64,000 nt of DNA from Eukaryota sp. TZLM1-RC (GCA_040285825.1 JAUPSS010000001.1:1302001-1366000); one strand, 5' to 3'. Shown: positions 17,501 to 60,100, counted from the stretch's first letter. Notes: a model not told the origin generated them from the letters alone. Made by a program: numbers and translations.

Positions 17501-19070
17501 TCCTTGTTTGACACTTAGTAAAATAATCGAAAGAATGGGTTATTATGGTGTTGTTTATTTTGAAGAAGGTGAATATAATGAAATTAATTTTGATGTTGAT
17601 TTAATTGGAGTTGATTTTGAATTAAGAGGAAATGAAGATGATATTAGTATTAATGTTTCAACTTCATTGAGTGTTGCTCAGTCTTACCTTAATATCAGTA
17701 ATATTGAGTTTGATTTATCGGATTTTACATCTTTTTTGATTATCGAAAATTCCAACCTAATACTGGAAAATGTAGCAATTAATTCGAATACTCAAATCAT
17801 TGATGGCTTCAATTCAAATGTTGCTTTTAATAATGTAGAAATTACGTCAAATAACCAAAATGAACCCTTCATTGACTTGTACCTTTGTCAATTTACTGGA
17901 TTAAATTCAATACTGCTTGGTGAAGGAATTTTTTGTCTTTTAATCATTCAGTCATTCAAATGACCAACTTTTTGATTGAAGGTCAAGTTGTTCCATCTGA
18001 TAACGTATTATGTGTGGAAAATTCAAAAGTTGATTTCACTGACATTAGGTTTTCAATAGTTGAAAGTGATTTTGGTGGTTCCAATCCTTCAATAATTTTT
18101 ACTACCAATTCAAATATTTCAATTTCTAATTCATTTCTTGTAAATTCGGATTTTATTCTCTTAAAAGCCATCACTAGTGAGGTTGTCTTTAATACACTCA
18201 ATGTTTCAAATTGTCAAAGCTCTTTGTTCATCAATACTACTTTATCTAGTGTTGAATTAAATAATGTCATAGTTAATCACTCAATAGGTCAGTTTTTGCT
18301 AGCCCAAGACACTAGTGAAGTAGTCTTTGGAAATGTTACTTTTGAAAAGGTTGTCTCTGATTCAGTTTTGATTGAAATCATTGATTCCAGTTTCTTTTCA
18401 GTTGATTTTGATGTTTTTAATTGTGAAGTATATTCATTATTTGATTCACTGAAATCAAACAGTGAATTAATTAAAACTTATTTAACCAATCTTACCCTCA
18501 TTAATGGTAATTTATTAAATATAGATCAAAGTTATTTAGAACTAACTCAATTGGAAATGGTTGGTTACACTTTTGATGAAATTCCCAATGTTTTTAGTTG
18601 TAGTCAAGATAATTATTTAATTAGTTCAATCAATTCCACGTTTACCATAAGTCAATCAAATTTGATTGGTTGTTTAGTTGATGCAATCCTTTATTTTGAT
18701 CTAAATTTCCAAGACTCTACTGCTTCTTTTCTCAAATTTCTTGACTATTTAGCTTTAACGAGGTTATTGCTTCTGAATTCTACTATTGAATTAAATACAA
18801 ATCTCTCTGTATTGGTTAGATCAATTGAGTTGGACGAGAACAGTTCTATTTCAGGTAAGGATAAATACCTTGATTTAGAGCTAATGATTGGTGAATTATC
18901 AACAATTAATGAATGTGTTGGTACAAGGGAATGGCAAATTGTATTTAACTTTTCTTTTGCTGAATTAATTGAAGACTTTGTGTTGATTCATGAATATAAT
19001 TCCGCTTCGAAAAATATTTTTTCCTCTGTTGATTTCTTATTAATCAGTTTCAAGGACAATTATGCAGCAA
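14557..19070 (+). repeat. intragenic tandem duplications within the surface-protein gene
   Basis: 14557-16180 is similar to 17045-18670, and 16310-17044 is similar to 18461-19070 plus 26476-26605; clearly homologous but diverged in both DNA and protein. Confidence 0.85.
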
Positions 19071-19220
19071 TGTTAGTCTTGAATAGTATTTATAGTAATA
19101 GTTTAGTTATTAGTATTCCGCCTGTTAGCTTAAGAAGAGAGAACACAATTCCTCTTCGTAATAAATTACTTTACATTTACTCAAGCTATGTCACACGATA
19201 ACCCTAGCCATAGACCATCA
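19071..19220 (+). repeat. 5' LTR, family A (150 bp)
   Basis: Identical to 26322-26471; contains AATAAA and the Gag-Pol ATG (19188). Confidence 0.97.
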
Positions 19221-22200
19221 ATACGTATTGGGTCGTCCCCGGCTCAGCGTAGGATCCTTGAGGAAGAGACTGGTCCCTCTTCCTCACCACTAACCACAGA
19301 CTCTGCTTCCGTGCCTCCTTCTTCGGTTGAAGCTTCTGCGCTTCCTGAAGCAACTCTTCCCGAGGGTTCTACCCCAAAGGAAGATAGTTCCCTTCCTGAG
19401 GATTCCGTTCCCATGGAAGGAAGTTCCTCTCCTCGGGATTCCGTTCCTGTAGAAGGAGACAACCCTCCCAAGGATTCTATTCCTTCGGAAGGAAGAAGCC
19501 CTTCATTAGTCTCCTACGACGATGAAGATGTTGAGGATTCCGTTGCTCCTCTTCCTCCTTCACATTTAAGGGCGTCTGAAGTCCCATCTTCTCCCCTCCC
19601 TGAAAGAAGTTCTGAAGTACCACCTTCACCTTCTACTCAGAACAGAGAGACTGTTCAACCTTCTCTCGCGTCAAAGGAAGGATTAGAAGATCTACCCTCT
19701 TCCTCCTCTACAAAGGCCACTGAAGTACCATCTTCATCCCTTTCATCTAGTTCTGAGGTTCCACCCTCTCATTCTCAACAGCTCCTCCCTCCAGTTCCAA
19801 CTGCTAGGAGGAACATTCAAAATCCTGCTGTTCCAGCTTCGGGATCTCCTCTGACTTCAACAGTTAGTGGAGTTAATAATCTATCTGTTTCCCCTCACCA
19901 GGCTAGTGATTCCATTCCTAGCCTTTCGAACCTTCCTTCGTATCTTTCCGAAGAGCAAAGGAAAAGGTACGAACAAATCTTTTCAGATTTGGTTGAGTAC
20001 GAGGAACCTCCCAAGGAATTCTCCCCTCTACCTCAACATCAGGTCCCTCCCACGGCACCATCTTCTGAAATTGACAAAATTCCTGGTGAGGTCTCTAAAG
20101 AATATATAGAGCGTTTTCTCCAAGAAGAACGAAACTGGGAACACAGAAAAAGATTGGACAGAGAGATTGAAGCTAGAAGAGGAACATCCTCTACACCTGC
20201 TCAACTTACCCCTTCTCAAACTAGCTCCTACGCTAGCTCAAGTGTTCATCATGGTGCTTCCCGTCAGCACAACCCTTACGCTAGATATAGGGACACACGA
20301 GTCATTCCAGGGGATCCAGAAGCCATCCCTCCCACGGAGATGAGCAACAAACGGCCTCCTTTCCACGGTCCCAAAGTCGAGAACGACTTAGGATTATGGA
20401 TCTCTCCCAGAATTGGTCCATTTCTTTCCGATGAAAGGATCACCCCAGAAACCTCCAGGAATGACCCTGAACCAACTTATGAACCAAGACCCGGAGTTAG
20501 GTTCATGAGAACTACTCGAGAAGGAGTATTCAGACGCTTCGCTGGAGATGAAGACAACCTCTTCATAAATGTTCACAACCCTTGCCCATACCCTAGGTTC
20601 AGCCCTGGGTACAACGCATCTCTCGATATCCTCATCGACAGAGATTATAGAACAGGGTGGTGGTTTACTGAAACCACTTATGGTGAAAGACTCTTTCTTT
20701 ACGACAGACGTCCTGACCATATAGCTTCATATTGTGGGCCTGACCACAGAAGATCAGGCAATCTTCAAAGAGCTCTCCAGCTCGTCACAGTTTTCCCTGG
20801 ATGCATAGAATCCAGGATGTTGAAATGGGTCATGGTAGAAGGTCGCATAGAAAAGACACGCTTGGTACAACCAGCGATCTCTTCATATCAGGTTCCTGCC
20901 CAGATTGAAGAAACTGAACCTTCCCCTGAACCTCACCAAAACGAAGTTCCATCCTCCGTTGAACAACCTATGGAAACTTCTACAGAACCCCCCACACAAC
21001 CCTCGCATAATCCTCCCATGGAACAAACTGAAGAGGACGTTGTAGTGGAAGTCAGTGATGAGTCTCCAACTCCTGACTCTATTCCAACTGTGTTAACACC
21101 CATGGAACACACTCCAGTACCTGCACAGCCTATGGAACAATCAGTGGTTCCACCCACACTCCTTTCCACTAGTTCTACAAGTTCTCAGCCCCCGGTTCAA
21201 CCAACACCATCCACAGTAAGTTCTTCTCGTTCTACATTTTCGGGTACTTACGACAGCAACCTTCTCCTATCTTCCATGGTGGGATCAAGAGACAGGGACA
21301 ATAGACGTAGGGACCGTCCCAAACGTCCAACTCTCGATGCTTCTGACTTAAGAAATGTTGATAAACTCCTAAAGTTTGTTAACAAATTCATTCTCTGGAG
21401 TCGCACCGACAGAATAGTCGATGAGGCTCGAGGTAATATCGAAGACCCTGCTCAAGTTGCTTTGGCCAGCGAAGTTGCCAGACTTCGCGAAGAACTCGAA
21501 CTAGCCAGATCAGCAGAATTGGCATCTGACCAACGGTTCGACAGCGAACCAATTCATGAATGGGATCTCTTCCGATCCGCCATGCGCATCAGTCCCAGAG
21601 GTTTAGCTGAATGCGTTACACCTGAAGCTCTCAACGCTTTAAGGTATCAAGGCACTGGCCTTTCAATTTCCTCTGCGATGGTCCCAACCAGCAGAGATGA
21701 ACGCAACATTTGGGAACAGATCCTAAGGAGAACCCAATTCAGTAGACTGGATCAAGCTCTGGACGCTCTACATGCAGTTAACATGGATTGGTCTGAGAGA
21801 GATTATGGTAACAGATGGATAGACTTCATGCTTAACATAGGCAGAGTCTTAACGCGTTCCACCGCTATCCAAGACGTTCGTGGCCTGACTCATCAAATGA
21901 GAAACATCACCATCCACGGAAACCCCGTAGACCGACTCCCCGAATGGGAAATTGCTTCTCACGTCATTGAAAGCATCGGTATTACCATCATCAGGGACAG
22001 ACTCCTCAGGATCTGGTCCAACCCCTCCCATTACTACTCAGATGGCCACACCCTAGGAGAATTTTTCAGTGTTCTCCAAATAGAGTACGAAAACTTTTGT
22101 AATGCTAGATCTTTTAAGGAGCAGATCAATCACGTGGACTTCTTGTATCAAAATAGAATCTCGTTTCAGACTGAGAACCGTCGCAGACAGACGGTACCTT

Positions 22201-25200
22201 CTCCCCCTGCTATCCCCAAAACAAGAGGTTCCAGCTCTGGCAGGCGCCCAAAACAACAACGACGAGAAGGAAGCTCTACTCAACCGTCTTCCACTCAGTC
22301 TGATGTCAACGTCCAATGCAATTTCTGTAAACAAATGGGTCATCCGACTGAAAGATGCCCTAGTGAGGACTGCCAAAGAAGCAAAAAGTGGAGAGAGCAA
22401 CAAGCTCAACACAAAGCTCGAGGCAGAGGTTCTAGAGGTTCTGGTTTCCGTAGCCGAAGAGGCACTCGCGGCAGAGGCAAGGGCTCTTCATCATATAATA
22501 AACGTTCCCGTCACTATTTACACAGTTTTGAAACCATACCCCCTACAACTACAACACATTCCCACACAGAAAACACAACATGGAAAGATTCCCTAATCAA
22601 TCCTTTAGCCAACTTGGAACATACCAAGACGCATAACATTCAAGCTAATTTCTTCTCAGAACAAGCTGAATATGATTCCGATACAATATTTATGGTACAA
22701 TCCATAAAGTCCACAACCAACTGCCTACAATTAAACTTCTTGATCAACAATGTCGAAGTTAAAGGCATAATTGACTCCGGTGCAACATGCTCAGTAGTCA
22801 CAGAAGACGTCATCAGTAATTGTAACATGGCACGTTCCAACGAAACCATATCATACAAGATTGCTGATGGATCTACCTCACAGTCCCTTGGTACTGCTTC
22901 TGGAACCCTTAGCATTAGACTAGGCAGTGTTTCCCAGATTGTACACGTGAAACACAAGTTCAGCATCGTTCCTGGACATGAGACCATTCTCATTGGTGCT
23001 GACTTGTTGAGTCACCTTGGGCTGATGAACAACAAGGGCATTTATATTAGAATGGACGACGCCTGTCGCACATTACTATTACCTGAAGCCGAATTCGACC
23101 ATCGAATATCGCAAGCTTCAGAAGTCGTCAACGTTTCCACACGTTGGTTGGAACACATCAACTCATCTGGTTGTACCATCAACCTCGACAACGACCATTT
23201 CAAGAAGTCCCTACTTCAAACTTTGAAAGAGTTCGAAGACGTATTTACCCTCAAGCCTCATGCTGAAGGTATTGATTGCCCTCCCATGGAAATCAACTTC
23301 TACAACGAAGACGTCAGAGTTAGAAGACCCCCCAGGACCCTGAATCCAGCCAGGCTAGAGGTCGCTAACCAAATTTTCGACAAACTCGTAGACTCAGGAT
23401 TTGCTGTCCCATCGAACCACGAGTTCAGCTCCCCTGTCTGTCTAGTGGTCTACCCAGATCACCGTAAGCCCCGCCTTACCGGTGACTATAGTGGCAAGGA
23501 CGGAGTCAACGCCAACACCATTCCTGTTGAGCCCAACCTTCCAAGGATCTCCGATAGGCTGGTATTTCTCTCCCAAGCGAACTACATAGGCACCCTTGAC
23601 CTCCCCAAAGCCTTCTGGCAACTCAAAATTGCTGAAAAGGATTGGCAGAAAACAGCCCTGAGCATTCCTGGCAAAAGTATCATGTTCAAACGTGCAGCTT
23701 TTGGCCTAAAGAATGTCCCAGCCGTTTTCCAAAACGTCATGGCTGACATCTTCTCTGGAGACGGTGTCTTCATTTACATAGATGACATCATAATCATAGG
23801 TTCAACCTTTGACGAATTCATTGAACGCCTCCGTCGCGTCCTTGATCAAGCCAGGTGCAAAAGAGTTTCCTTGGGACTTCCAAAGTGTCATTTCGTGTCT
23901 TCCAGACACCCAATCAAGATACTGGGCAGTGTTTTCCAAAACAAGCAACGGACTATCGATCCCACTCGCGTTGAATCTTTGCTGAATCTACCTAGACCAA
24001 AGACAATCAAAGACGTCCGCAGCCTTGTAGGATCAGTCAACTTCATTAGAGAATGGCTTCCTCAGGTATCTGAGCTCATCGCTCCTATCATCAGATTGAC
24101 TAAGAAGGATGGAACTAACTCCAACGTTAAACCCAAACCCCGCGCGCAACGCCTTCAATGGACCGACATGCACGACGGACTCCTTCAAAAGATCAAACAA
24201 CTGATAGCGAAACACATGCCGCTCAGCTTACCTCCGCAGGAAAACCAAATTTTAATTAGTTGCGATGCATCCGACATTGCTGTAGGCGGCGTCATATGGG
24301 AACAAATCGAACAAGTCGACGACCCCGGTACCCCCCTGATCAATAGGAAATGTAGGCCTATCAGCTTCTTCAGCCGGTTGTTAACCAACTCGCAAAAGAA
24401 CTGGCCGACTAACCAAAAGGAACTCTACGCTATCCTACTCATGTTAACTCAAAGTGGTTTTGAAAACTACTTAAAAGGAAGGAAACTGGTCATATTCACA
24501 GACCATCAAAACCTTACCTACATGTTCACGGCTCCTGAGAAGAACAGAATTGTAACAAGATGGTTACCCATATTCTCTGAATTCTGCTTTGACTTGGTAC
24601 ATACCAAAGGGGAAGATAACTTCTGGGCTGATATGTTGTCTCGAATAGTTCCGCCTATAGACCATCAAGAGATCAATCATTTGTCCCATCAAATGCCTCC
24701 AAATTTTCATCCAATATTTTACATTGACAAAATTGATGGAACAGAAAATGAAAGATACTACATCGAAGACTTAAACAACTTCGAACGTATCATGGTCATC
24801 AGAGAACGATGTTCCAACGACCTGCCTATTTTCGAGCCATGGCTCTGTAGGATTAGGTCCGAACAGAAGCTTGCCATAGCTTCCAAAGACCCCTCTTTCA
24901 ACAACTGTGTTCATAACAATCATCTTGATTTATATATGACTCACGACAACAAGATAGTGATTCCCAAATCACTCATTAAGGACACCCTTAACTTGTTGCA
25001 TGGACTTCTGCAAGGAGGTCACCCAAGCAAAGCTGAAAGCCTGAACAAGCTCAGGAACAGCGATTATTGGTGGCCAAACATGCTCACCGACATGAATAAG
25101 CACGTCCAAGAATGCCCCTCCTGTCAGAAAACAAAGCCAGTTCCCAAACTGCATGTTCCCCCAACCGGTTCATTGTGGGCGGACAGACCTTTTGCTCGCG

Positions 25201-26327
25201 TCAACGCCGACGTCATTGGTCCTCTTCCAGAAGATCAAGAAGGCTACAAATACATCCTCGTATTTATCGACAGCTTCTCTAGGTTCACGATCATCGTGCC
25301 TTTAAAAGAGATAAATGCCAATCTTACTGCAGATGCATTAATTTGGAAAGTCTGTGCCATCTTTGGTATTCCATTTCAAATCCACAGCGATAATGGACCC
25401 GAATTTTCCAAGGCTGTCTTTGACGAATTAAGCAAATTTTTGGGCATAGAGGTGTCAAAGTCAATACCTAGGTTTTCCCCGTCCAACGGCCTGGTAGAGC
25501 GCCGACACAGAGACATCCTGCAAAACCTACGGAAATTGCTCGTAGACTTCAATGCCTACGATGTGTGGTCTGAATACTTGCCTTATGTGCAATTATTGAT
25601 CAACTCTTCCAAGAGCTCAATAACCAACCACACTCCATACCAAGTGATCTTTGGCTCAGATGTGTCTCCCAGATCAGACCCTGGCAAAATTCTTGAAATC
25701 ATTGAAAGCTCGACGTCTGAGTCATCTTTTATTCAAGAAATTCAATCTAAATTTCGAAGATTGAAAGAGAAACAGGAAAAGGCAGCACATCATCAAGCTT
25801 CCAAAGCTTCCAAGCTAGCTAGATCGTCAACTCCAAACCCTTTTGAAGTTGGTCAATTGGTATTGAGAGCATCTGGCTCTTCCGCTAAGCTTCATGGAGA
25901 CTATTTAGGACCCTTCCTAATTACTGAAATCGTATCCAATTCGTCTGTGAATATTAAGAATCTCTGCACAGGTACGATTGTCCAAGCTAGCGTCAAACAC
26001 TTAGCTCCCTGGCACTCCAGCTTGCCCACCAACGATGAGTTCCACTCCTGGGTCGCTGCTGGTGATGCCGAAGAACACATCATTGAAAAAGTGCTCAGCC
26101 AGGAAGGTGACTTTTGCCAAGTGCAATGGCCAGGAAAAGAGATCACCACTGAGCATGTGTCTACAGTCCAAAATACTGCCGCGTATAAAGACTTTATCAA
26201 GACTTCAAAAGCACGTCGCCGTACTAAAACCGCTCCTCCCAAGAAGCGTCATATTTCCATTAGTTCACCTCCTGTGACTAGAGCTTCCAGGGCTCGTCGC
26301 TCGAAAGAGAGGAAAAGGCAGTGTTAG
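19188..26327 (+). CDS. Gag-Pol polyprotein, single ORF (Gag-CCHC, PR, RT, RNase H, IN, chromodomain-like)
   Basis: CNFCKQMGHPTERC; IDSGA protease; LDLPKAFWQ and YIDD RT; CDASD/KELYAI/TDH/ADMLSR RNase H; HHCC plus D-D-E (NADVIGP, HSDNGPEF, NGLVER); GPF motif; HIIEKVL...VQWPG; domain order PR-RT-RH-IN. Confidence 0.97.
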   Translation: MSHDNPSHRPSIRIGSSPAQRRILEEETGPSSSPLTTDSASVPPSSVEASALPEATLPEGSTPKEDSSLPEDSVPMEGSSSPRDSVPVEGDNPPKDSIPSEGRSPSLVSYDDEDVEDSVAPLPPSHLRASEVPSSPLPERSSEVPPSPSTQNRETVQPSLASKEGLEDLPSSSSTKATEVPSSSLSSSSEVPPSHSQQLLPPVPTARRNIQNPAVPASGSPLTSTVSGVNNLSVSPHQASDSIPSLSNLPSYLSEEQRKRYEQIFSDLVEYEEPPKEFSPLPQHQVPPTAPSSEIDKIPGEVSKEYIERFLQEERNWEHRKRLDREIEARRGTSSTPAQLTPSQTSSYASSSVHHGASRQHNPYARYRDTRVIPGDPEAIPPTEMSNKRPPFHGPKVENDLGLWISPRIGPFLSDERITPETSRNDPEPTYEPRPGVRFMRTTREGVFRRFAGDEDNLFINVHNPCPYPRFSPGYNASLDILIDRDYRTGWWFTETTYGERLFLYDRRPDHIASYCGPDHRRSGNLQRALQLVTVFPGCIESRMLKWVMVEGRIEKTRLVQPAISSYQVPAQIEETEPSPEPHQNEVPSSVEQPMETSTEPPTQPSHNPPMEQTEEDVVVEVSDESPTPDSIPTVLTPMEHTPVPAQPMEQSVVPPTLLSTSSTSSQPPVQPTPSTVSSSRSTFSGTYDSNLLLSSMVGSRDRDNRRRDRPKRPTLDASDLRNVDKLLKFVNKFILWSRTDRIVDEARGNIEDPAQVALASEVARLREELELARSAELASDQRFDSEPIHEWDLFRSAMRISPRGLAECVTPEALNALRYQGTGLSISSAMVPTSRDERNIWEQILRRTQFSRLDQALDALHAVNMDWSERDYGNRWIDFMLNIGRVLTRSTAIQDVRGLTHQMRNITIHGNPVDRLPEWEIASHVIESIGITIIRDRLLRIWSNPSHYYSDGHTLGEFFSVLQIEYENFCNARSFKEQINHVDFLYQNRISFQTENRRRQTVPSPPAIPKTRGSSSGRRPKQQRREGSSTQPSSTQSDVNVQCNFCKQMGHPTERCPSEDCQRSKKWREQQAQHKARGRGSRGSGFRSRRGTRGRGKGSSSYNKRSRHYLHSFETIPPTTTTHSHTENTTWKDSLINPLANLEHTKTHNIQANFFSEQAEYDSDTIFMVQSIKSTTNCLQLNFLINNVEVKGIIDSGATCSVVTEDVISNCNMARSNETISYKIADGSTSQSLGTASGTLSIRLGSVSQIVHVKHKFSIVPGHETILIGADLLSHLGLMNNKGIYIRMDDACRTLLLPEAEFDHRISQASEVVNVSTRWLEHINSSGCTINLDNDHFKKSLLQTLKEFEDVFTLKPHAEGIDCPPMEINFYNEDVRVRRPPRTLNPARLEVANQIFDKLVDSGFAVPSNHEFSSPVCLVVYPDHRKPRLTGDYSGKDGVNANTIPVEPNLPRISDRLVFLSQANYIGTLDLPKAFWQLKIAEKDWQKTALSIPGKSIMFKRAAFGLKNVPAVFQNVMADIFSGDGVFIYIDDIIIIGSTFDEFIERLRRVLDQARCKRVSLGLPKCHFVSSRHPIKILGSVFQNKQRTIDPTRVESLLNLPRPKTIKDVRSLVGSVNFIREWLPQVSELIAPIIRLTKKDGTNSNVKPKPRAQRLQWTDMHDGLLQKIKQLIAKHMPLSLPPQENQILISCDASDIAVGGVIWEQIEQVDDPGTPLINRKCRPISFFSRLLTNSQKNWPTNQKELYAILLMLTQSGFENYLKGRKLVIFTDHQNLTYMFTAPEKNRIVTRWLPIFSEFCFDLVHTKGEDNFWADMLSRIVPPIDHQEINHLSHQMPPNFHPIFYIDKIDGTENERYYIEDLNNFERIMVIRERCSNDLPIFEPWLCRIRSEQKLAIASKDPSFNNCVHNNHLDLYMTHDNKIVIPKSLIKDTLNLLHGLLQGGHPSKAESLNKLRNSDYWWPNMLTDMNKHVQECPSCQKTKPVPKLHVPPTGSLWADRPFARVNADVIGPLPEDQEGYKYILVFIDSFSRFTIIVPLKEINANLTADALIWKVCAIFGIPFQIHSDNGPEFSKAVFDELSKFLGIEVSKSIPRFSPSNGLVERRHRDILQNLRKLLVDFNAYDVWSEYLPYVQLLINSSKSSITNHTPYQVIFGSDVSPRSDPGKILEIIESSTSESSFIQEIQSKFRRLKEKQEKAAHHQASKASKLARSSTPNPFEVGQLVLRASGSSAKLHGDYLGPFLITEIVSNSSVNIKNLCTGTIVQASVKHLAPWHSSLPTNDEFHSWVAAGDAEEHIIEKVLSQEGDFCQVQWPGKEITTEHVSTVQNTAAYKDFIKTSKARRRTKTAPPKKRHISISSPPVTRASRARRSKERKRQC
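19213..19234 (+). promoter_or_regulatory. palindromic stem at the PBS position (gacc-at-CAATACGTATTG-ggtc)
   Basis: Perfect 12-bp palindrome 19219-19230 beginning with the LTR-terminal CA; the same architecture is in families B and C. Confidence 0.8.
26303..26321 (+). promoter_or_regulatory. polypurine tract
   Basis: gaaagagaggaaaaggcag directly abutting the 3' LTR. Confidence 0.85.
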
Positions 26328-26471
26328 TCTTGAATAGTATTTATAGTAATAGTTTAGTTATTAGTATTCCGCCTGTTAGCTTAAGAAGAGAGAACACAAT
26401 TCCTCTTCGTAATAAATTACTTTACATTTACTCAAGCTATGTCACACGATAACCCTAGCCATAGACCATCA
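26322..26471 (+). repeat. 3' LTR, family A
   Basis: Identical to the 5' LTR; followed by TSD GCAA. Confidence 0.97.
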
Positions 26472-31479: not shown

Positions 31480-32430
31480 TTGGTTATGTATGAGGCAGCA
31501 TTTTTGAGATGTGGTAAAAATTTTATCTTTGAATTTTTCCACAGGTTCCCTTATGATGTGGATTTGATTATATGGTGAATCAAATTTTTATTTAAATCAA
31601 CTTCAATTTGTATTAGGTCATTTGCCCAGTGATATCTGGATTCAGTGTTTTCCACAGAATGTTCCAGAATTTCCCAACCGATCACTTCCAAATTTACGTT
31701 TTTGCCTGAAAATGCCTCAACATTATCTGGTTAATTTATATGAAAGCTTGGATTATGAAGTAAGACTTGGCTTGGCCAAAACTGAAAATCCCGCTTTCGG
31801 AAATTTTCGAAAGGACATTCGAAACAATTTGGCTACAGCTTTAGTTTCTCAAATTGCATCTGCTGAAGGACTTTTGTTAGAAAACGATGAATGGCTTTTA
31901 AACATACGGTTTTGGTGCTTTCTATGGGCAAACAATTGGACCATTCGTTTAACTTGTCAATGTGGTAAACCTCTTTTGTTTACTCATCTTTTGAACTGTA
32001 AACATTTGATAACATTTCAAGGTAAAGTACGACATTATTTTCAGGGATCAAATTGATGTAATGTGTATATCATATTGAGTAGATTCAGTTATAGAGCCTC
32101 TGATATCGAAATAATTTCTTGATGAGTCCGATATTGATAGTACGTGCTACAACAGAGCTTCTATGGGTCGGAAATAGGGTGATTTGGTTCTGCCCGGCTT
32201 CAATCGTAGTTCTACCATTTTAAACGCCATATCAATTAACCCTTGTCATTCTTCTAACGAACATTTCATTAACTCGAATGTAAATGATTCTCTTTTTGCT
32301 TGCCAAAGTACAAAATTTCTCAATACGCGAAATTATCTCCTATGTTAATGAAAATTCTCAAGCCCATGAAAATTCATGTCCCTTTGTCTTTCTTTTGCTT
32401 GGACCTTTAGGTAAGGATGCCACTAACTTT
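31480..32430 (+). mobile_element. decayed CRE-like non-LTR fragment (same family as 4903-6945)
   Basis: PSDIWIQCFPQNV...LPNLRFCLK...CQCGKPLLFTHLLNCKH is near-identical to the 4960-6006 ORF. Confidence 0.85.
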
Positions 32431-40292: not shown

Positions 40293-40359
40293 TGTTGGCG
40301 CCCTAAGGCTTTTATAATATGAATAGAAAATAAATTATCTTTATCTCAACCACTTTTGC

Positions 40360-40396
40360 AACCTAAGGCAACAATAATTATTGGCCATATTAGGTT
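40360..40396 (+). promoter_or_regulatory. palindromic stem at the PBS position (aacctaa-ggc-aa-CAATAATTATTG-gcc-ata-ttaggtt)
   Basis: Perfect 12-bp palindrome 40372-40383 starting at the LTR-terminal CA, extended by ggc/gcc and aacctaa/ttaggtt pairings. Confidence 0.8.
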
Positions 40397-40457: not shown

Positions 40458-43400
40458 ATGTCAGTCTCTCCTCGCCAGGGCACTGACTCTTTTAAGATTT
40501 TCATGCAACAGCACGACAGAGATGCATATAACACATTCACAACAATAGGAGTAGAAGCAAAGAGTGAGGATTCGGGCTCGAGACCACCCTCCGCCCCCCC
40601 TCAAGAGAAACCAATGGAACCAGGCACGGAACCACCTCCCGCCTCTTCCAAATCAAAAACAATGGAACCAGGCACGGAACCACCTCCCGCCTCTTCCATG
40701 TCCAACAAACCAGATAAGGTTTCAGGAACGGGACCACCCCCCTCCTCACCTAAAGAAAATGTTGGGTTAAGCTCGGATACTTCGTCTGTCCTAAAGGACT
40801 ACGAAGAACTCCAGTCCGTTTTAGAAGAAATGGACGACGATGAAAAAGAGCTTCGCCAACAGATAATGAAGGACGCGGAAGCTCACCTTGAACCAACAGA
40901 TTACTGTTTGTTTGAGCAGCTCCCTCCCCTTTGGAAGCAAATATCAAAATCTGGAAGAAATGTGGGATTCCAGACTCTGGGCCATAAAGGGGACCCTAAT
41001 AGAGTCTACGAATTCCCTCCAAATGAGAGAAGAGAACTCATTAACGCGTTGGACACTTTGAGTAGAGAGACCTATGGACGCGGGGCAGAACGCCGTCCTA
41101 GGATAACCGGTATGGATAGAGAGATCCATGTGATTCTGGCAAAACCTATCAAAGATAGGCCTGATTGGGAAGCCATTCACTTAGATCAATTCGGGAGAAG
41201 GATCAGGTTCTTACCCATCGAAAGAAGGAGCAGAACCGATACCGACGACATCCTGGAAACCAAATTACCGGCATGGTTGGACTCGCACTTTGATACGATC
41301 ATCCATAACTACTCAGAGGTAGAGGATGGGGCTCCTACTTGTTTCAGAAAATACATGGAACAAGCAGACAGCACAAATCCAAGTAAGTTGGATCCCGTCA
41401 GTGACTTCTTTGACGCGGACGCCCTAAATAATATACTTACGGAACGTTCAAGCGTATCCACATTTAGGAGCCGCCCAAATAACTTCATTCATTAATTCGG
41501 GGAATCAACGACAAGGAAGAAGAAGTTCAGGTTCTTGGTCACGGGCGATCAATCAACAGAGCTCCACCAGAGACCTAAACTTCCTATAATTGCCCCAATT
41601 ATATCTGAAAAAGAGCAACCGGTACAAGTCTGTTCCATTGACGTACTCCCTGATCACATCCCAACAGTAGATGTGACAGAACGAGCAAACAGACCTACCA
41701 GAGTGGTTCAGGGACCATCAAGTCCCTCCCAACCCATGCTCACTAGCGCATCAGAAGACGAAGTCGAGTTGAGAGGACCTAGTTTAGATGAAACACCTCC
41801 TCCTCAACCCCCTCGTAGAAGAGTTACTTCTGAGGAGCCTCTCCGTTTGGAAGACCTCCAAGCTTCTAGAAATATTTTTGGATATGAGTATAGCAAGTAG
41901 TCTTCAGAGACATGTGGACTCTCAGCCTAGGTCAGCTGAATATAAAGCCCCTCACCTATCTGAGAAGGACCCTCTTAATAAGATGTCTCTCGTCTCCTTC
42001 CTCCTCAAATTCCAAACATGGGACAAATACGGGCGCAAGATAGCCAATCGAAGCTTTCAAGCCCCTGGTCAATCTGATTGGTCTCGTGCTATGTTGATAG
42101 CAACCCAAATATTTGGCGAAGGAAAGACCCAGATTACCCCTGAGTTGTTATCATCACTCCCATCTCACATCAGAGAAGAAATAGACAGGGACATGAAACA
42201 GCCACTCTTAAGGATCGACCCAGAACTAACGAAACGTTTGGGACCTCCTATCCATCATTATGACTTATTTAGAAGTATGATGATTAGTACTTGTCCATCC
42301 GGCTTATCAAGCATGGTCGACCCCCATCTCATCTCTAGATGGCAAGGCCAAGGACTTCTAAGACCGGACTTCTCAGACGCCGACCTAATGGTTTTTCTGC
42401 TACGCAGGACACAATTTACCTCATATCATGAGGCTTGCTCTGCCCTAGCAAAACCATGTATAAACTGGAGAAACATCCACAACAAAGTGGATGCGGACAA
42501 CGAATTTGGTAGGTTCGTCGAAGATTTTGGAGACGTCCTGAGGATGACCACTTACATGGTTGATCACTCCATATCTGCATCAATTAGGGGAAGCAGTGGT
42601 TTAATAACCCTCTCACCCGCCCTTATTGCAGAATACTTTCTCTTGGGCATAGATAATTATGCCATTACCAAGGAGCTGGCAAGCCATTGGACAAGAGAAG
42701 ATCTATGGGACCCTTCAACAGGTACAACTTTGTTAGACCTGATTTCGACCACCAGGAGACACTTTCTAGCTTGGTGCCAAACAACAGGAAATAGGCACAC
42801 CATGGAACTTTTGAGAAAACAAGCTGAAAGAGAAGAAGACATCCCATTAGGCCTCTCGACCATGAGAACGTTCTCTGGAGGAGCAACCCCATCTGGTCCA
42901 GGTACTAAACGTCGCTTGGGAGGCGGATCCAAAGGAACTCCCCAAAACAAATATGTCCCAGAAAGACATGAACGAGAGGGATCTAAGTTCTGTACATTCT
43001 GTAACGTCACCGAAGGAAATAATCCTATCGGTCACACGGTTTTCGAATGCAAAGACCCCCGTTGTACCAGGAGCAAGGTACCAAAAGAATTGAGGTTCAA
43101 GATCGGCGAGGCTGATCAGCCTGCGAGAAGTGGCAGCGTAGTTAGAGGCCGAGGTGGCCGTGGTAGACGTATTTCTAGGTTTAGAGGTAGGGGCCGAGGT
43201 GGCCATTTTAGAGGACATAAAGGCAGAGGTCAATATAGACCTATTTATTACATAAACACACAAGAGGATACATCATCAACATCATCCCCTTCTGAGAACG
43301 TGTCAGCTAGTTCGAGCATGACCTCTCACAGACGGATTGACCGTTTCAGCAACAGGGTCAGAAACACTGGAAACTTTCCCAATCGGAAATAAATCAACGC

Positions 43401-46400
43401 AATCAATCATAATCAATCAATTGCCGATTTCGGAAACCCAGTCAACAACTCCCCAACAGCTCAACAATTCTTACTAAATCCTCTACAATTCCACAAACCC
43501 AGCTCTGATATCAACAGTATTTTTGGTATAAATTCTACGGTTAGTGAGAACCACATCAGATCCCAGCGTTCTCCATTTCTAAGATTGGAGATTTTAATAA
43601 ATAATATAAAGATGTTTGCAACTATTGATTCGGCAGCGTTTTGTTCGGTTATAACAGAAGATTTGGCTAACAAATGCAACATGTCAATTAATAGAGATGA
43701 TACAATTGAGTTCTTACCAGCCAATAACGTATCAAGTAAATCGCTAGGGAGTGCAAATGGTATTCTGTCGTTCAACGTAGGAAGCATTGCGCACCAGGTA
43801 CATTATAGACATACTCTTCCCATAATCCCGGGTTCGAACAAATTATTAATAGGGGTAGACATGTTAAAAACACTTGGGCTTCAGACGGATGATGGTCTTT
43901 TCATTAGATTAGACAAAGAACACCGCACTTTGTTAAATGTAGAATCTGAATTCGACTCAAGAATCGCTCAACATTCGATTGGGACCTTAGATAACCAATC
44001 ATCGAGTCCTTCCGATTTTGAGGAGCAGTTAACTAGATCTGGTTGTGAGATAAAATTAGATGATGATAATAATAAATTAAAATTAACGAGTCTACTAAGA
44101 ATTTTCAGCGATGTTTTTAGTGAAACTCCAAACAGAAAAGGAATCGATTGTAAACCTCTAACAATCCCCTTTAGAGACGAGAATGCTATAGTACATAAAC
44201 CTGCTAGACGATTAAATCCCAGCAAATTGGAAATAGCAAACAAAATATATGATGAACTGATTGAAATGGGCTATGCAGTTGAATCTAATTATAAATTCAG
44301 CTCTTTTATTGTCTTAGTTATATATCCTGACGGCAAGAAACCCAGGTTAACGGGAGACTTTAGCGGTAAAGATGGAGTCAATGCCCACACGATTTCAGTA
44401 GAACCTAATTTACCTAGGATTAGTGATATTTTAGAGTTTTTAAGTAGAGCAGATTACATAGCCACGCTTGATTTACCAAAAGCTTTCTGGCAAATGAATG
44501 TAGCTGAGAAGGACATTGAGAAAACATCAATCTCAATTCCTGGAAGGTCAATTATGTTTAAAAGAGCTTGCTTCGGATTAAAAAACATCCCAGCAGTATT
44601 TCAAAATGTAATGATGGAAATATTCCAAATTGATGGCGTTTTCATATATATTGATGATATTATAATAGTTGGAACGACTTTCGATGAATTCTATAAGAGA
44701 TTACAAAGAGTCCTCCAATGCGCCAGAAATAGACGTGTAAATATAGGTTTACGTAAATGTAAATTCGTAACATCCAAACACCCTATTGATATTTTAGGAA
44801 GCACCTTCCAGGATAAAACCAGATTTATTAGTAAGAAAAAAATCGAAGCCTTGATGAGAATCCCTAGACCAAAAATCAGTGAAAGAAGTTCGCTCATTGG
44901 TAGGATCCATCAATTATATAAGAGATTGGCTTCCAGGTATTTCCGAATTAATAGCTCCAATTAATGAGTTAATTAAAGGAAAACCTAGAGTAATAAAATG
45001 GACCAACGAGCATGACGATTATCTTAAACAAATAAAAGATTTAATAATTAATCACATGCCCCTTGAATTACCAGCTCCGGGCAAGCGCGTACTAATAAGT
45101 ACCGACGCATCAGATGTAGCAGTTGGAGGCGTTATTTGGCAAGAAATTGAACCATACTCCCCTGCAGGAACCCCGCTGAATAAAAGAAAAGTGAAACCTT
45201 TATCGTTCTATAGTAGATTACTTACAGAAACACAAAGGAAATGGTCCACTTTACAGAAAGAATTATATGCAATTCTTCTGATTTTAACTGAAAGTTGTTT
45301 AGAAAGCTACCTTTTGACTAGACATCTAACAATTTTCACCGATCACAAAAATATTGCATTCCTGGCCACAGCCCCAGAGAAAAATAGAATTGTAAAGAGA
45401 TGGCTGCCGATACTATCTGAATTCGACTTTGATATAGTCCATGAACCAGGTGAAGATAACCACTGGGCAGATATGCTATCGAGGAATATTGATTTAGATC
45501 AAGATGAGGAAACTCCTTCTATATGTAGTATAAATATACCAAATACTTTACTTTCGAATTACGAGATACCTCCTATAGACGATGATTCTGATTCGGACTT
45601 CGAAGACATCCCATCAATTTCATCCCTAAGTAGACACCAAGACTTACCTATTTTTTCTTCTTGGTTCTCTAAAATAAGATCTGAACAACAAATAGCCAAA
45701 AATAATAATGACCCTCTATTTGAGAATGCAATTTTAGATGAAAATACTCAAATTTGGAAAAACAATAAAAATAAAATTTTAATTCCAAAAAGCCTCAGAA
45801 AACAGGCACTATTATTAATTCATGGATTGGTTCAATCAGGCCACCCCAGCAAAAACGACAGTCTACATAAACTGTCCAAAAGCGACTTTTTCTGGCCTAA
45901 TATGAGAAAGGACCTCATAAACCACATCAAAAGATGCCCAACTTGTCAAAAAACGGCACCAGTTAAAAGAACAAAAACACCCTCCACAGGTTCCCTTTGG
46001 GCAGATCGTCCTTTTGCCAGACTAAATGTTGACACAATTGGACCTCTGAATACTGATAGTGATGGTAATAAATACTTATTAGTATTTGTAGATTCTTTTA
46101 CTGGATATTCAATTTTAGTCCCTCTGAAGGAACTCAATGCCTTAGAGACCGCAGACGCTTTGATTTGGAACGTTTGCGCAATTTTTGGCATACCTATGTT
46201 AAGTCATAGTGATAATGGTCCCGAGTTCGCCAATGAGACTTTTAAGATAGTGTGTAATAGATTAGCGATCGAGATGAGTAACTCAATACCCCACTACTCT
46301 GAAAGTAATGGACTCGTAGAGCGAAAACATAGAGACGTTCTACAATGCTTGAGGAAATTATTAATAGATTTTAATGATTATGGAAATTGGTCTACTTATG

Positions 46401-47145
46401 TACCCATATCCCAACTATTAATAAATTCCACTAAAAGCACAAAGACAGGTTTTACACCTTACGAACTAATGTTCGGATCTTCGATTAGCCCAAGATCGGA
46501 CCCTGCAAACATATTAGGAAACTTATCAAAATTTGATTCCAATATACCTTTATTAGACGATATTAAAATGAAAAATACTCGTCTGCAAGAAAAAAGGGAA
46601 GAAGCAGAGCGTCATCAATCATTAAATACTCCGATTTCAGTAGACAATACTAATTCGCGCTCTATAGTATTTAATATTGGTGACTATGTCCTACGTAAAA
46701 CCAAACAGAATAATAAATTACATGGATCTTGGAACGGACCCTTTTTAGTAATAGACCATCCTTCCAACTCCACTTTATTATTAAAGAAACTTATCACTGG
46801 CACCGAATTAAAAGCTGCCAAGAAAGATTGCAAAATCTATAACGCAGATAATCCTCAGGATATCGAATTTCTAAAAGCAGTCGCAGCAGGCGATGCTGAG
46901 AAACATGTTATAGAGAAAATCCTCTCAGAATATAATTCTGACTCAGGTAGTTTCTGTACTGTTCAATGGTTTGGCGGTGAGACAACAGAAAGAGCCTCTC
47001 CATTCAGTTAAACATTCAGAAGCTTACAAGTTGTTCAGCAGGAATAACAAGAAAATTGGAAAACGTACCTCTAGTCAACGTAAGAGTACCTCCAATAACT
47101 CTACGCCTTGCAAGAGGCCTAGACGCAGTACTAGAATTAGGAAGT
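40458..47145 (+). pseudogene. Gag-Pol of family B, broken by several frameshifts
   Basis: ORF pieces 40458-41495, 41535-41900, 41788-43392, 43585-44964, 44879-47011. The last shift (extra A in gaaagagcc) is absent from the copy at 53274-54090. Confidence 0.85.
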
Positions 47146-47215: not shown

Positions 47216-47356
47216 ATAGTTTAGATTCATATTTATATAAGCCTATTAGCTCTGAAAAAGGGAAGAAGCAGTGTTGGCGCCCTAAGGCTTTTATAATATG
47301 AATAGAAAATAAATTATCTTTATCTCAACCACTTTTGCAACCTAAGGCAACATATC

Positions 47357-53135: not shown

Positions 53136-53137
53136 AG

Positions 53138-54090: not shown

Positions 54091-54102
54091 TGTTAGCCTT
54101 GG

Positions 54103-57100
54103 ATAATATTTATAATAGTTTATTTATAGTTTATTAATGGTTATTGTATCATTGCGCCCATGCGCTTAAGTTTAGGGAAATCCTTATTTCCCTGTAATAA
54201 ATTACATTTAAGGTATACTCAATGTCTAACCCCCACAGATCATCAATACGTATTGGATCACCTTTGGGTGGTTCCAATGACAACTCCGAGACTGTTAGGA
54301 CTGATCCTCCTACGTCTCACTCTTCGAGTTCTTCCTCCCGAACTCCTCAGTCGGGACCAGAACAACCCTTGTCAACTGGGCCCGAGGGAAGCAATGCTTC
54401 TCCTCCTCCTGTGTTAACTCCTCCCTCCGGAGATCCTGTTACACAACCCAATGTTACAAGTTCTTCCTCCCAAACTCCTCAGTTGGGAACAGAACAACCC
54501 TCTGGCGGCGAGAGAAGTGATACTTCCTCTCAACCCTCGGGTCAAGGTTCCACTCCATCTACGGATGACGTTCCTGTGGTTCCTATCAGTCTTCCTGTTC
54601 CTCCCTCTAATGTGGAAAACTTTGTACCTCTTTCTCCTCCCCCTGGTTCTGAAGGAGAGGTTGAAGATTCCCTTTTAGGTCCTGAACAGTTCAGTACTTT
54701 AGATGAATATCTGAAGTATGTCATCAACCAGACTGACCCTGACTCGGCTAGCAACAAGATATCTGAGCTGTTGAAGCTCAAGAGGGTAGAGCCTCCCTCT
54801 TCACCTATTGTTTGCGCTCCTGTTGCCCCTTCCACTTCTTCTACGGAAGCTCCTGGGGAAGGACAACAAGTTCTTTCTACTTCTTCTACGGAAGCTCCTG
54901 GGGAAGGACAACAAGCTCCTTCCATTCCTTCTAGAGAAGTACCTATGGAAAGCAGCCCTCCACAACAACCAGCTCCTCCTGCAGTCCCTGCTGGTAGCCC
55001 AAATCCTACTACTCCTTCTCAAGAAGTTCCTGTAGCAGGCCTTCCTGATACTTCTGCTCCTACTACGGTAGCTCCTACAGAAGTCCATTCAACTCCATCT
55101 GTTCCTCCTTCGGGAGTTTCTACTAGAGGAGTAATTCATGTCCCTGCAACCTCTGGCCAGACTCCTCAGCAAGGTCACGTTGTTTCTTCTATTCCTGCTG
55201 CTTGGCAGGTGCTTAGTGCTGCACAGCCTAACACTTATCAAGCCCCAAGCCAGCCCCAGGAATCAGATTCTCCTTTCATCTCTACCCAACAGAGAACTGA
55301 AGCTCAAAACTTAGTTCTCAATGCTGGTATTGAGTTAATGCTAGGAGATCCTGCATCGATTCCTCCCAATGAACTCATTGCTGCTTTACCCCCATTTTGG
55401 GGGTCCAGAAGTGGTTAATGATCACGGCTTTAGGATCCGCAGAAGAATAGGTCCCTACTTCCCAACGGAAGAAGTAGACAATCTTACGGTTCGTTGTGAC
55501 CCTCCTCCAATTTATCCTCAACGGGATACTGTTGGAGGGTTCAGAACTCCTCGTGAAGGTGTACAGAGGATCTTCGCTGGTGATGAGCTGAATCTCTTCC
55601 TCAACCGATGTAACCCATGTCCTTTCCCCAGGTTTAGCCCTGGATACAATGCCTCTCTTGATATTTATATCAATAGAGACTTCAGGACTGGATGGTGGTA
55701 CACTTACACTACGAACTACCAAAGATTGTACCTTCAAGACCGCAGACCAGACCATTGCGCGTCATATTTTGGTCCAGAACATAGAAGGAATAGGCCACTA
55801 AGGGACGCCCTGATGAATGTACAGGAGAACATTGGTGTCACCAATTCTAGTTCTCTTCTGTGGGTCAATGTTGATGGTAATGTGCAAAGTTACTATCCGA
55901 GCGATCATGACCCAGTAGAATTGAGAACTTCTGAGCCTGACCCAGTTGAGACAGACACAGTTTTCTCATCTTTGAGCATTGAGCCTCAAGATGACCAACA
56001 ACAAGATGAGCCAATGGCGACTACTGACACTGTTGAGTCAGTGCAACAATCTGTAGTTGTCCAATCTCAGGATCCATCAACTCCTTCCCAGGTTCCTCAG
56101 GACCCTAGGCTCCTAGGAGTAACTCCTTCTAACACTCCCATAGCTCCCCAGTATTCCAACACCCTACTGATGGAAGCTATGGCGAGTTCACAAGATAGAG
56201 ATAGAGATAGACAAAGAGGTGGTCGTCCTAGAAAACCCACCCTGGAAGCCAACGATATCTCTGACCCAGTAAGGATCTTGAAATTCATCGACAGATTTAT
56301 TCTGTATGCTAGGACTGAGAGGACCATTGAAGAGAGAGACATCAATGAATCTGATCCTACTCAAGTCAGACTAGCAAGAGAAGTGTCTGAATTAAGAAGG
56401 CAACTTGAGGAACGTTCTCGTCCTCCTGCCACTCCTCAATCCATAAGCAGAGAAAACCGGAACCTCCCTCTCGATCAGAGATATGGTAACCCCCTCCACG
56501 AGTGGGACCGATTCAGAGCTGCTGCTCAAGTCGACCCTCGCAGGATCGCCTCCTGTGTTACTCCAGAATGCTTGGCCGCTCTGAGAGCTCAAGGCAGGTT
56601 TTCGTCCATGTCTGATAGTATCTCAGCTATCGACAACATCAATGAGGAGCAAATATGGGAATCGATTTTACACCTCAGCCAGTATAGTACATTAGAAACG
56701 GCGAGGAATCAGTTATATAGAGTCCAGATGAATTGGAATATTCAGGACTTTAGGAATCGCTGGGGCGACTTCACAGTGAGGCTAATGAGAACGGTTTCAC
56801 GAAGTACTGCCATTTCTGACGTCAGGGCAAGCGACCGTGCCTTGTATGGTCAACACTTTCTACAGCGTATTCAAAACTGGGAAATTGCAACCCATATGAT
56901 CGATTCTGTTGGTATTCAGGCCATCAGTGACAACCTGAGAACAGTATGGTCCACACCCAATGTTTGGCAACACCATACTTTACAACAATTTGTCGACATC
57001 CTTGCTGCTGAATACATGAGTTGGTGTTCAGCAAGATCCTATGACGAGCAAAGGGCCAACATCAGTGACAGCTATCAACAACATATGGGTCACTACGTTA

Positions 57101-60100
57101 GAGCAAACCCAAAGGACAAGAAAAGAATAGGCAAATTTAAGCCTGCGGGTTCCAGCGTCGCCCCTGCTCAACTTACCAAAAGGAGCAAGTCGCAAATTAA
57201 GAAAGAAAGAGATAAAGCTGGTCTCTGTAGATTCTGTGGTCTTCCAGGCCACTCCATTAACGAATGTCCCGACCCTGATTGCCAGCGATCCAAGCAATGG
57301 CGAGAAGCCAACCCAGATGCCGTTCGAGCATATTTGGCTAGGGGTAGTAGTAATAGTAGTAGTAGAGGCAGAGGTAGACGTAGAGGAAGAGGCAAGGGCC
57401 CTTCTAGTAGTAATAAACGTTCCCATAAATATTCTATGTTTACTATAGAGCAAGATAGCTCTCCAACAGGTAATACATCAAAGCAACGTTCAAACAAATG
57501 TTCCTTGTTTACTATAGAGCAAGACAGCTCTCCAGCACGTAAAACACCAAACATAAAACAAACCTCAGTCTCCAACCAGTGGATTAAGTGCTTAACTAAT
57601 CCTTTGACTACCCAGAATTTTAAAACAGCTACAACGATAGAAACACCAAATAAACCCTGTTTCATTCATGAGTTCGACTCGAACCCAGACTCAGAGTCCC
57701 ACAGTGATATCTTCATGGTTCGCACCTCAGATGTCGCACGCAAAAATTTAAAATTGAAATTTTCAATAAATAACTGCGAAATAGAAGGGATCATCGACTC
57801 TGGAGCTTCGATATCAGTCATCACTGTTGATCTAGCAGAGAGATGCAACATGGTAAAGACTAACCATAATATTTATAATAGTTTATTTATAGTTTATTAA
57901 TGGTTATTGTATCATTGCGCCCATGCGCTTAAGTTTAGGGAAATCCTTATTTCCCTGTAATAAATTACATTTAAGGTATACTCAATGTCTAACCCCCACA
58001 GATCATCAATACGTATTGGATCACCTTTGGGTGGTTCCAATGACAACTCCGAGACTGTTAGGACTGATCCTCCTACGTCTCACTCTTCGAGTTCTTCCTC
58101 CCGAACTCCTCAGTCGGGACCAGAACAACCCTTGTCAACTGGGCCCGAGGGAAGCAATGCTTCTCCTCCTCCTGTGTTAACTCCTCCCTCCGGAGATCCT
58201 GTTACACAACCCAATGTTACAAGTTCTTCCTCCCAAACTCCTCAGTTGGGAACAGAACAACCCTCTGGCGGCGAGAGAAGTGATACTTCCTCTCAACCCT
58301 CGGGTCAAGGTTCCACTCCATCTACGGATGACGTTCCTGTGGTTCCTATCAGTCTTCCTGTTCCTCCCTCTAATGTGGAAAACTTTGTACCTCTTTCTCC
58401 TCCCCTGGTTCTGAAGGAGAGGTTGAAGATTCCCTTTTAGGTCCTGAACAGTTCAGTACTTTAGATGAATATCTGAAGTATGTCATCAACCAGACTGACC
58501 CTGACTCGGCTAGCAACAAGATATCTGAGCTGTTGAAGCTCAAGAGGGTAGAGCCTCCCTCTTCACCTATTGTTTGCGCTCCTGTTGCCCCTTCCACTTC
58601 TTCTACGGAAGCTCCTGGGGAAGGACAACAAGTTCTTTCTACTTCTTCTACGGAAGCTCCTGGGGAAGGACAACAAGCTCCTTCCATTCCTTCTAGAGAA
58701 GTACCTATGGAAAGCAGCCCTCCACAACAACCAGCTCCTCCTGCAGTCCCTGCTGGTAGCCCAAATCCTACTACTCCTTCTCAAGAAGTTCCTGTAGCAG
58801 GCCTTCCTGATACTTCTGCTCCTACTACGGTAGCTCCTACAGAAGTCCATTCAACTCCATCTGTTCCTCCTTCGGGAGTTTCTACTAGAGGAGTAATTCA
58901 TGTCCCTGCAACCTCTGGCCAGACTCCTCAGCAAGGTCACGTTGTTTCTTCTATTCCTGCTGCTTGGCAGGTGCTTAGTGCTGCACAGCCTAACACTTAT
59001 CAAGCCCCAAGCCAGCCCCAGGAATCAGATTCTCCTTTCATCTCTACCCAACAGAGAACTGAAGCTCAAAACTTAGTTCTCAATGCTGGTATTGAGTTAA
59101 TGCTAGGAGATCCTGCATCGATTCCTCCCAATGAACTCATTGCTGCTTTACCCCCATTTTGGGGTCCAGAAGTGGTTAATGATCACGGCTTTAGGATCCG
59201 CAGAAGAATAGGTCCCTACTTCCCAACGGAAGAAGTAGACAATCTTACGGTTCGTTGTGACCCTCCTCCAATTTATCCTCAACGGGATACTGTTGGAGGG
59301 TTCAGAACTCCTCGTGAAGGTGTACAGAGGATCTTCGCTGGTGATGAGCTGAATCTCTTCCTCAACCGATGTAACCCATGTCCTTTCCCCAGGTTTAGCC
59401 CTGGATACAATGCCTCTCTTGATATTTATATCAATAGAGACTTCAGGACTGGATGGTGGTACACTTACACTACGAACTACCAAAGATTGTACCTTCAAGA
59501 CCGCAGACCAGACCATTGCGCGTCATATTTTGGTCCAGAACATAGAAGGAATAGGCCACTAAGGGACGCCCTGATGAATGTACAGGAGAACATTGGTGTC
59601 ACCAATTCTAGTTCTCTTCTGTGGGTCAATGTTGATGGTAATGTGCAAAGTTACTATCCGAGCGATCATGACCCAGTAGAATTGAGAACTTCTGAGCCTG
59701 ACCCAGTTGAGACAGACACAGTTTTCTCATCTTTGAGCATTGAGCCTCAAGATGACCAACAACAAGATGAGCCAATGGCGACTACTGACACTGTTGAGTC
59801 AGTGCAACAATCTGTAGTTGTCCAATCTCAGGATCCATCAACTCCTTCCCAGGTTCCTCAGGACCCTAGGCTCCTAGGAGTAACTCCTTCTAACACTCCC
59901 ATAGCTCCCCAGTATTCCAACACCCTACTGATGGAAGCTATGGCGAGTTCACAAGATAGAGATAGAGATAGACAAAGAGGTGGTCGTCCTAGAAAACCCA
60001 CCCTGGAAGCCAACGATATCTCTGACCCAGTAAGGATCTTGAAATTCATCGACAGATTTATTCTGTATGCTAGGACTGAGAGGACCATTGAAGAGAGAGA

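Follow-up and report, generated by a model that had tools for sequence, protein, structure and literature searches.

How does an LTR retrotransposon start reverse transcription if it has neither a tRNA primer-binding site nor the complement through which Tf1 primes itself? This is a standing question for e.g. the GalEa, Skipper and SM-Tcn1 elements, and it is posed again by three families of elements (A, B and C) in a stretch of 64,000 nucleotides from Eukaryota sp. TZLM1-RC (the whole stretch is referred to as the window). In the established scheme, as outlined in the sources used here, the primer sets the right end of the cDNA and hence pairs beside the LTR. In all three families, a perfect 12-bp palindrome begins at the terminal CA of the 5' LTR (Table), with the sequences and coordinates that a preliminary description of the window had given. 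The clade to which these elements belong makes one answer testable, as the central pairs of the site appear to covary though they are unable to pair in cis.

The domain order PR-RT-RH-IN corresponds to that of Ty3/Gypsy and not to that of Ty1/Copia, Ty3 RT and Ty3 Gag-Pol score best among the relatives of solved structure (E 3e-38 and 2e-37), and TG...CA LTRs, a target duplication and a polypurine tract are all present in families A and B. Judged by these features, the elements are Ty3/Gypsy LTR retrotransposons. The single ORF of family A encodes a CCHC knuckle, PR, RT (YIDD), RNase H with its acidic motifs, IN and a degenerate chromodomain-like tail. Its 5' and 3' LTRs are identical at 150 of 150 nt, the target duplication is the 4-bp gcaa, and an empty counterpart of the insertion exists at a paralogous site near 16914; family A is a recent, intact Ty3/Gypsy insertion. 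The surrounding host region is tandemly duplicated (14545-19070, 26472-26604), its paralogous copy supplying the empty site, and it contains long ORFs without a Pfam match. With its intact single ORF and identical 150-nt LTRs, family A offers a compact assay system. This compactness extends to the ends of the coding region: gag starts within the 5' LTR in families A and C, and the stop codon of family A lies within the 3' LTR (26325-26327).

Positions of the features in the window (counted from its first nucleotide)
Feature	Position	Strand	Description
Family A 5' LTR	19071..19220	+	150 nt, TG...CA; LTR identity, target duplication gcaa, empty paralogous site
Family A AATAAA	19160-19165		within 5' LTR
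Family A gag ATG	19188		within 5' LTR
Family A palindrome CAATACGTATTG	19219-19230; with stem and bulge 19213..19234	.	4-bp flanking stem, 2-nt 5' bulge; reads gacc-at-CAATACGTATTG-ggtc (19213-19234)
Family A gag-pol ORF	19188..26327	+	single, open, 2,379 aa
Family A polypurine tract, CAG and 3' LTR	26307..26471	+	3' LTR 26322-26471; no palindrome downstream
Family B 5' LTR	40293..40373	+	81 nt
Family B AATAAA	40329-40334
Family B palindrome CAATAATTATTG	40372-40383; longer stem 40360..40396	.	non-coding; reads ggc-aa-CAATAATTATTG-gcc (40367-40386)
Family B gag-pol	40458..47011	+	broken copy, open in four pieces
Family B polypurine tract, CAG and 3' LTR	47256..47352	+	3' LTR 47272-47352
Family C 5' LTR	54091..54245	+	155 nt; end placed by homology with A
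Family C AATAAA	54196-54201
Family C gag ATG	54222		within 5' LTR
Family C palindrome CAATACGTATTG	54244-54255; with stem 54238..54259	.	gatc/gatc stem, 2-nt bulge; reads gatc-at-CAATACGTATTG-gatc (54238-54259)
Family C site, second copy, at 58007	58001..58022	.	tandem duplication

Family B is likewise a recent Ty3/Gypsy insertion, with a broken ORF; its LTRs, only 81 nt long, are identical over 81/81 nt, and its target duplication is the 4-bp tatc. The 3' LTR of family C lies beyond the window, and the end of its 5' LTR was set via homology to family A. The 5' part of family C is present as a head-to-tail duplicate (54103-57867 and 57866-61629, 99.92% identity), in which the second LTR is without its first 12 nt; this repeat is either a tandem duplication or an assembly artefact. 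A fourth Gypsy family (D) is 5'-truncated (36745-39787, minus strand), its DNA is ~71% like that of B, and an inverted repeat with its centre at 36845-36856 opens its 3' LTR. Adjoining the 5' LTR of C is an insertion nest in which 3' fragments of B are stacked with those of a related family, B' (52754-54091, minus strand). A CAG or TAG is conserved between the polypurine tract and the TG of the 3' LTR in A, B, B' and D (26319-26323, 47269-47273, 52833-52829 and 36868-36864, respectively), which may represent extra bases at the left end of the cDNA.

Palindromes of at least 12 bp are centred at 28 of the 63,988 window positions, and only 6 of the 4,426 CA dinucleotides in the window open such a palindrome; four of these six are the family A, B and C sites. 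The two remaining CA-N8-TG palindromes (13332-13343 and 8820-8831) have no LTR found nearby and were taken as chance occurrences, although the former is of the type inferred for the TVIT families described below. All four 3' LTR ends that were compared in register (A, B, another B end and B') lack the palindrome. Families A and C are relatives, with an amino-acid identity of 71% in the protease region, so that the independent palindrome types of the window number two rather than three, and these two (A/C and B) are the only types read as DNA. Family B is indeed unlike A, as had been described: the Gag N-termini give no BLASTP match and the pol regions are 52-54% identical. The other initial observations on the site stand as well, i.e., it stays self-complementary despite the change of its central pair from CG to AT in DNA, and it is coding in A, where the palindrome region encodes the gag residues S-I-R-I-G, and non-coding in B, where the gag ATG follows 75 nt downstream of the palindrome. 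The palindromic site is real and conserved, and it is very likely functional.

Does the palindrome merely accompany a conventional primer site? A TGG within a few nucleotides of the LTR is absent in A, B and C, the nearest TGG being found 8 nt downstream in all three. A host tRNA could in principle pair its 3' end with this distant TGG, or a half-tRNA could prime with its anticodon loop on TATTGG, and half-tRNA priming is known in Copia lineages from the accounts available. However, the tRNA 3' ends implied by the TGG at spacer 8 differ in all three families, the related pair A and C included. The half-tRNA loop match comprises 6-7 nt only (7 nt with an AAU anticodon are possible if G.U is allowed), and in A and C no more than 2 of the 4 pairs of the implied anticodon stem can form. 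The window contains no tRNA genes and no Rfam matches. We regard priming by a host tRNA or half-tRNA as very unlikely.

Self-priming as in Tf1, which also starts without tRNA, requires the LTR to contain a complement of 11 nt, and the RNase H of Tf1 cleaves the RNA duplex to yield the primer (PMC7175516, PMC4600332, PMC6317226, in the parts of these reports used here). A complement of ~11 nt is absent from the LTRs of families A, B and C: the longest contiguous matches to the post-LTR sequence (G.U allowed, spacer of 0-3 nt) are 5, 6 and 5 nt, respectively. Thus, although the chromodomain-like tail of family A recalls the Tf1/sushi group, plain priming by the first 11 nt of the transcript is hardly credible. 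The absence of a TGG directly after the LTR and of a Tf1/sushi-type complement had both been noted before and are upheld. As no separate tRNA-type site was found beside the palindrome in A, B or C, and the palindrome lies at the primer position, it takes the place of the tRNA primer-binding site, as proposed.

Beyond the palindrome itself, the flanking stems are compensated between families (gacc/ggtc in A, gatc/gatc in C, ggc/gcc in B), and in B a longer stem (AACCTAA-GGC ... GCC-ata-TTAGGTT) encloses the palindrome. The bulge was stated to be of exactly 2 nt, which does not apply throughout the group: by back-translation, this feature fails in 3 of 13 families. In these three families (P-T...T-V), 0 bp can form with a 2-nt bulge and 3 bp without a bulge (the latter in 15 of 400 random flanks), so that they extend the palindrome instead of forming a bulged stem. 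A 2-nt bulge with at least 3 bp is possible in 9 of the 13 families, compared with 135 of 400 random and 100 of 156 swapped flanks, which makes the bulge test a weak one. A 2-nt bulge is probably not universal in this group.

The closest proteins over RT-RH are annotated under Eukaryota sp. TZLM1-RC (96-98% identity), proteins of TZLM3-RCL and GEM-RC1 are about 59% identical, and elements outside this group about 30%. These three labels stand for what we take to be Skoliomonas-type free-living metamonads. The available text of the preprint on Skoliomonas sp. GEMRC contains neither the term TZLM1 nor a description of such elements. A quick tree of 43 rows (two of 45, P0085 and P0351, were dropped with <200 residues aligned), in which four unclassified or plant sequences served as outgroups, unites all 39 in-group rows in a single clade with a support of 100. 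The four tails in the window have no Pfam Chromo match; such matches are present in the relatives P0030 and P0038, which are short-contig polyproteins of the same clade with clear chromodomains and 42-46% identity over RT-RH. The tail of family A aligns across the P0030 chromodomain (pairwise E 2e-10) and is in this sense weakly traceable. Scans of 38 stretches of viral contigs and 34 stretches of metagenome contigs confirmed no related locus, and the five public contigs aligned to the 3' LTR of B', all from one run, have no recognisable 5' junction.

As gag starts inside the LTR in many families, the palindrome is translated there, and its form in relatives under the three host labels could be read from back-translated gag N-termini, which report codon compatibility and not observed DNA. 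CA-N8-TG palindromes are compatible with these N-termini in all three reading frames. Frame 2 is represented by the motifs SIRIG, TVRT[GV], TVIT[GV] and SLING, in which residue 2 tracks residue 4 (I-I, V-T, L-N), as pairing of palindrome positions 3:10 demands, and residue 3 is R or I, matching a self-complementary CG or AT centre. In frame 3, NNYC is found besides NDHC, in which the pair 5:8 has changed together, and in frame 1, QYIL and QYVL differ in the centre. The back-translated motifs thus imply paired changes at 3:10, 5:8 and 6:7. Conservation of amino acids as the cause of the palindrome is excluded by the use of three frames and by the non-coding site of family B. The tRNA model meets further difficulties here, since TVITV and TVRTV families would carry TGT in place of TGG, and since no tRNA model accounts for position 3 tracking position 10.

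In a first batch of 171 proteins, a compatible window was present within the first 16 residues in 36 of 121 distinct N-termini, compared with 131 of 3,738 windows of the background; among these 36 matches, about 6 look internal and due to chance, and many of the misses are fragments. A second batch (135 proteins, fetched after the rule had been fixed) gave 13 matches among 98 N-termini, 7 of them at gag starts and 6 apparently internal, by chance; NDHC and QYVL are the new types from this batch. With a loose frame-2 N-terminal pattern, 49 of 51 proteins from both batches are palindrome-compatible, the two misses being single copies, but this pattern was drawn post hoc, it admits 48 inner combinations of which 8 are compatible, and the copies are not independent. 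Several peptides could be encoded by different palindromes or without any palindrome, the predicted N-termini of several deep families contain no motif, and P0155 (NTYC in the NNYC family) represents either an ambiguous double change or a single mismatch. The motif types are scattered over separate branches of the well supported clade in the quick tree, which indicates that the changes recurred. Relatives thus appear to keep the site self-complementary while its letters change. For the claim of covariation among relatives this means that the paired changes exist in back-translation, whereas DNA shows two types only.

In public contigs aligned to family A, none of the 40 substitution rows listed falls within 19208-19246, and 20 fall within 19167-19207; a further 25 substitution and 13 indel rows stand outside this list, two of the three covering runs represent one sample, possibly the source of the window, and integrase, too, requires conservation of the last LTR bases.

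The pairs 5:8 and 6:7 bear on how many strands are involved. In a hairpin formed in cis (4 bp closed by a 4-nt loop) they fall into the loop and cannot pair; since they appear to covary nevertheless, two strands would be required, either two RNAs or the strands of double-stranded DNA. According to the cis alternative, the RNA would fold back, be cut near the bulge and prime itself. The minimum-energy monomer of family B is precisely this palindrome hairpin, and the flanking stems would suit it equally well. However, the letters of its loop would be free to change, and yet 5:8 and 6:7 stay complementary; furthermore, in predicted folds of the 5' piece alone, after a cut at +8, +10 or +12, the palindrome is unpaired. 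Fold-back priming, offered in the preliminary description as a second option, is therefore weakened and in our view improbable, and the covarying central pairs favour the other option described there, pairing between molecules. The evidence from sequence comparison favours an intermolecular duplex over a single hairpin.

Furthermore, as the site is its own complement, any LTR-adjacent primer carries the sequence of the element's own site, and the simplest source of such a primer is a co-packaged second genome. Our main reading, to which we assign a probability of about 0.5, is that two genomic RNAs pair at the palindrome and RT-RNase H cuts one of them to prime the other. In this model, two co-packaged genomic RNAs would pair through the palindrome, the element's own RT-RNase H would cleave one RNA within the duplex, and the 5' piece of the cleaved RNA would serve as the primer on its partner. 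A candidate cut at +10 would place the 3'-OH exactly at the LTR edge, one at +8 would leave a 2-nt spacer, and one at +12 would face the bulge. For the +10 cut, folding predicts trans duplexes of -23.3, -18.2 and -25.0 kcal/mol for A, B and C, respectively, in which the 5' piece is held by 10 bp and the flanking stem. Fully reciprocal cutting would remove most of the site normally used in second-strand transfer, so that cleavage of a single RNA would accord better with this transfer than cleavage of both. Were the primer copied during plus-strand synthesis, one half of the site would be rewritten to mirror the other, which would account for the perfect symmetry; this would depend on a retrovirus-like strand transfer, and the primer sites of Ty1 and Ty3 are described as not inherited from the primer. 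None of four RNA runs lists transcripts of the elements, which has no bearing on their expression.

The same palindrome could act in dimerisation without acting as the primer. It would then be a packaging dimer site comparable to the retroviral DIS or Ty1 PAL, and a downstream fold-back arm or a small RNA would prime. Palindromes are reported to mediate RNA dimers of retroelements, and the predicted monomers of A and C favour another hairpin in which a downstream arm hides half of the palindrome, that of A pairing back to position +4; an arm of this kind (CHSeq2) is described for GalEa as well. Nevertheless, A and C use non-homologous arms, each of which pairs with a different half, B is without an arm, and a pure dimer site need not begin exactly at the CA of the LTR. 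This division of roles is thus conceivable, though unlikely.

The folding scores themselves are unremarkable: monomer z-scores in short windows are 0.12, -0.24 and -0.51, and in ensemble dimer binding the sites do not clearly surpass shuffled sequences (27, 16 and 4 of 200 with 72-nt windows; 32, 13 and 38 of 200 with 102-nt windows). This would agree with a symmetry that is required in double-stranded DNA, either as the binding site of a homodimeric protein (integrase, Gag or a transcription factor) or as an end structure in strand transfer or cDNA processing. The two halves of a dimer-binding site covary too, central pairs included, so that RNA and DNA are indistinguishable in this respect. 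This interpretation would leave priming unexplained. Against it, the palindrome fills the primer position and no other is left, and in A, C and B the compensated changes of the flanking stems, which are bulged on one side, are RNA-like. We consider a function in double-stranded DNA to be rather improbable. Two other candidates were rejected by reasoning only: neither hepadnavirus-like protein priming on the bulge nor priming by the RNA 3' end at the CA of the 3' LTR needs the central symmetry, and for the latter AATAAA lies 40-55 nt upstream.

The nearest printed analogue of the site is the Conserved Hairpin Site of fungal GalEa elements (Ty1/Copia), a palindrome at the same position for which no fitting model is given; its authors weigh the Tf1 mechanism and a retroviral dimer site, neither of which fits (Donnart et al. 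2017, PMC5445492, in the portions of this article available to us, here and below). GalEa elements have no tRNA site, the 9 nt after the LTR are palindromic with its last A, and a bulge at the LTR junction is predicted in 5 of 8 elements (PMC5445492). However, they belong to Copia and the elements of the window to Gypsy, which makes an independent origin likely. GalEa possesses a complementary second arm (CHSeq2; PMC5445492), whereas the arms of A and C are unrelated and B has none. Its site occurs in two variants that differ by G>A and C>T, the A/T-rich one being found in low-GC families (PMC5445492); they look like RIP damage and not like covariation, unlike the changes in the clade studied here, which include transversions. 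No proposal of priming by a partner RNA appears in the GalEa account as available (PMC5445492).

Compared with the main reading, the self-priming elements Tf1, Tf2 and Tj1 (Tf1/sushi, Tcn1) are similar in being Ty3/Gypsy elements that use no tRNA and a primer cut from element RNA by RT-RNase H, but the primer of Tf1 consists of the first 11 nt of the transcript, held in the LTR in cis (PMC7175516, PMC4600332, PMC6317226), whereas in families A, B and C a second RNA would provide it, from the corresponding site. A short palindrome joins two genomic RNAs also in the retroviral DIS, the Ty1 PAL and the Ty3 tRNA-palindrome dimers; these palindromes, as described, lie beside the tRNA site and do not prime, whereas that of A, B and C is located at the primer position (PMC4974528, PMC5371799, PMC5445492). 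Dictyostelid Skipper and Selaginella SM-Tcn1 also belong to Gypsy and prime neither with a tRNA nor in the manner of Tf1, but a polypyrimidine or T-rich tract without a palindrome is described after their LTR (PMC5006619, PMC2864245). The literature excerpts on Helenus elements mention no palindrome. In the literature searched, mostly outside subscription journals, neither a palindromic primer site in Gypsy nor a model of priming by a partner RNA was found. 'Novel priming' has reportedly been proposed for the Cryptococcus Tcn2-5 elements. The mechanism had been put forward as a candidate new one, which holds in so far as no Gypsy case was found, but the GalEa palindrome is a printed precedent in Copia; the palindrome is a new variant of a tRNA-independent priming site, with a printed analogue in another superfamily.

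That dimerisation and priming are one event, with an independent origin in these protist Gypsy elements and probably in GalEa Copia elements, is a tentative extension of the main reading, to which we give slightly less than even odds. If true, priming would need two genomes and would be free of host tRNAs and of control by tRNA fragments, packaging would be tied to priming, and a further start of LTR reverse transcription would stand beside tRNA, half-tRNA and Tf1-type cis self-priming.

Apart from the LTR elements, the window contains two RT-bearing fragments (4960-6750 and 31495-32420) that are 81% alike over 928 nt and have no LTRs found; they are possibly non-LTR elements. Host genes are located at 1414-3150, 8971-10575, 12713-13849, 29778-31205 and 34958-35920, and their products are RCC1-repeat proteins, a vWA-like protein with AAC repeats, an ephrin-receptor-like repeat protein and ketopantoate reductase (ApbA/PanE).
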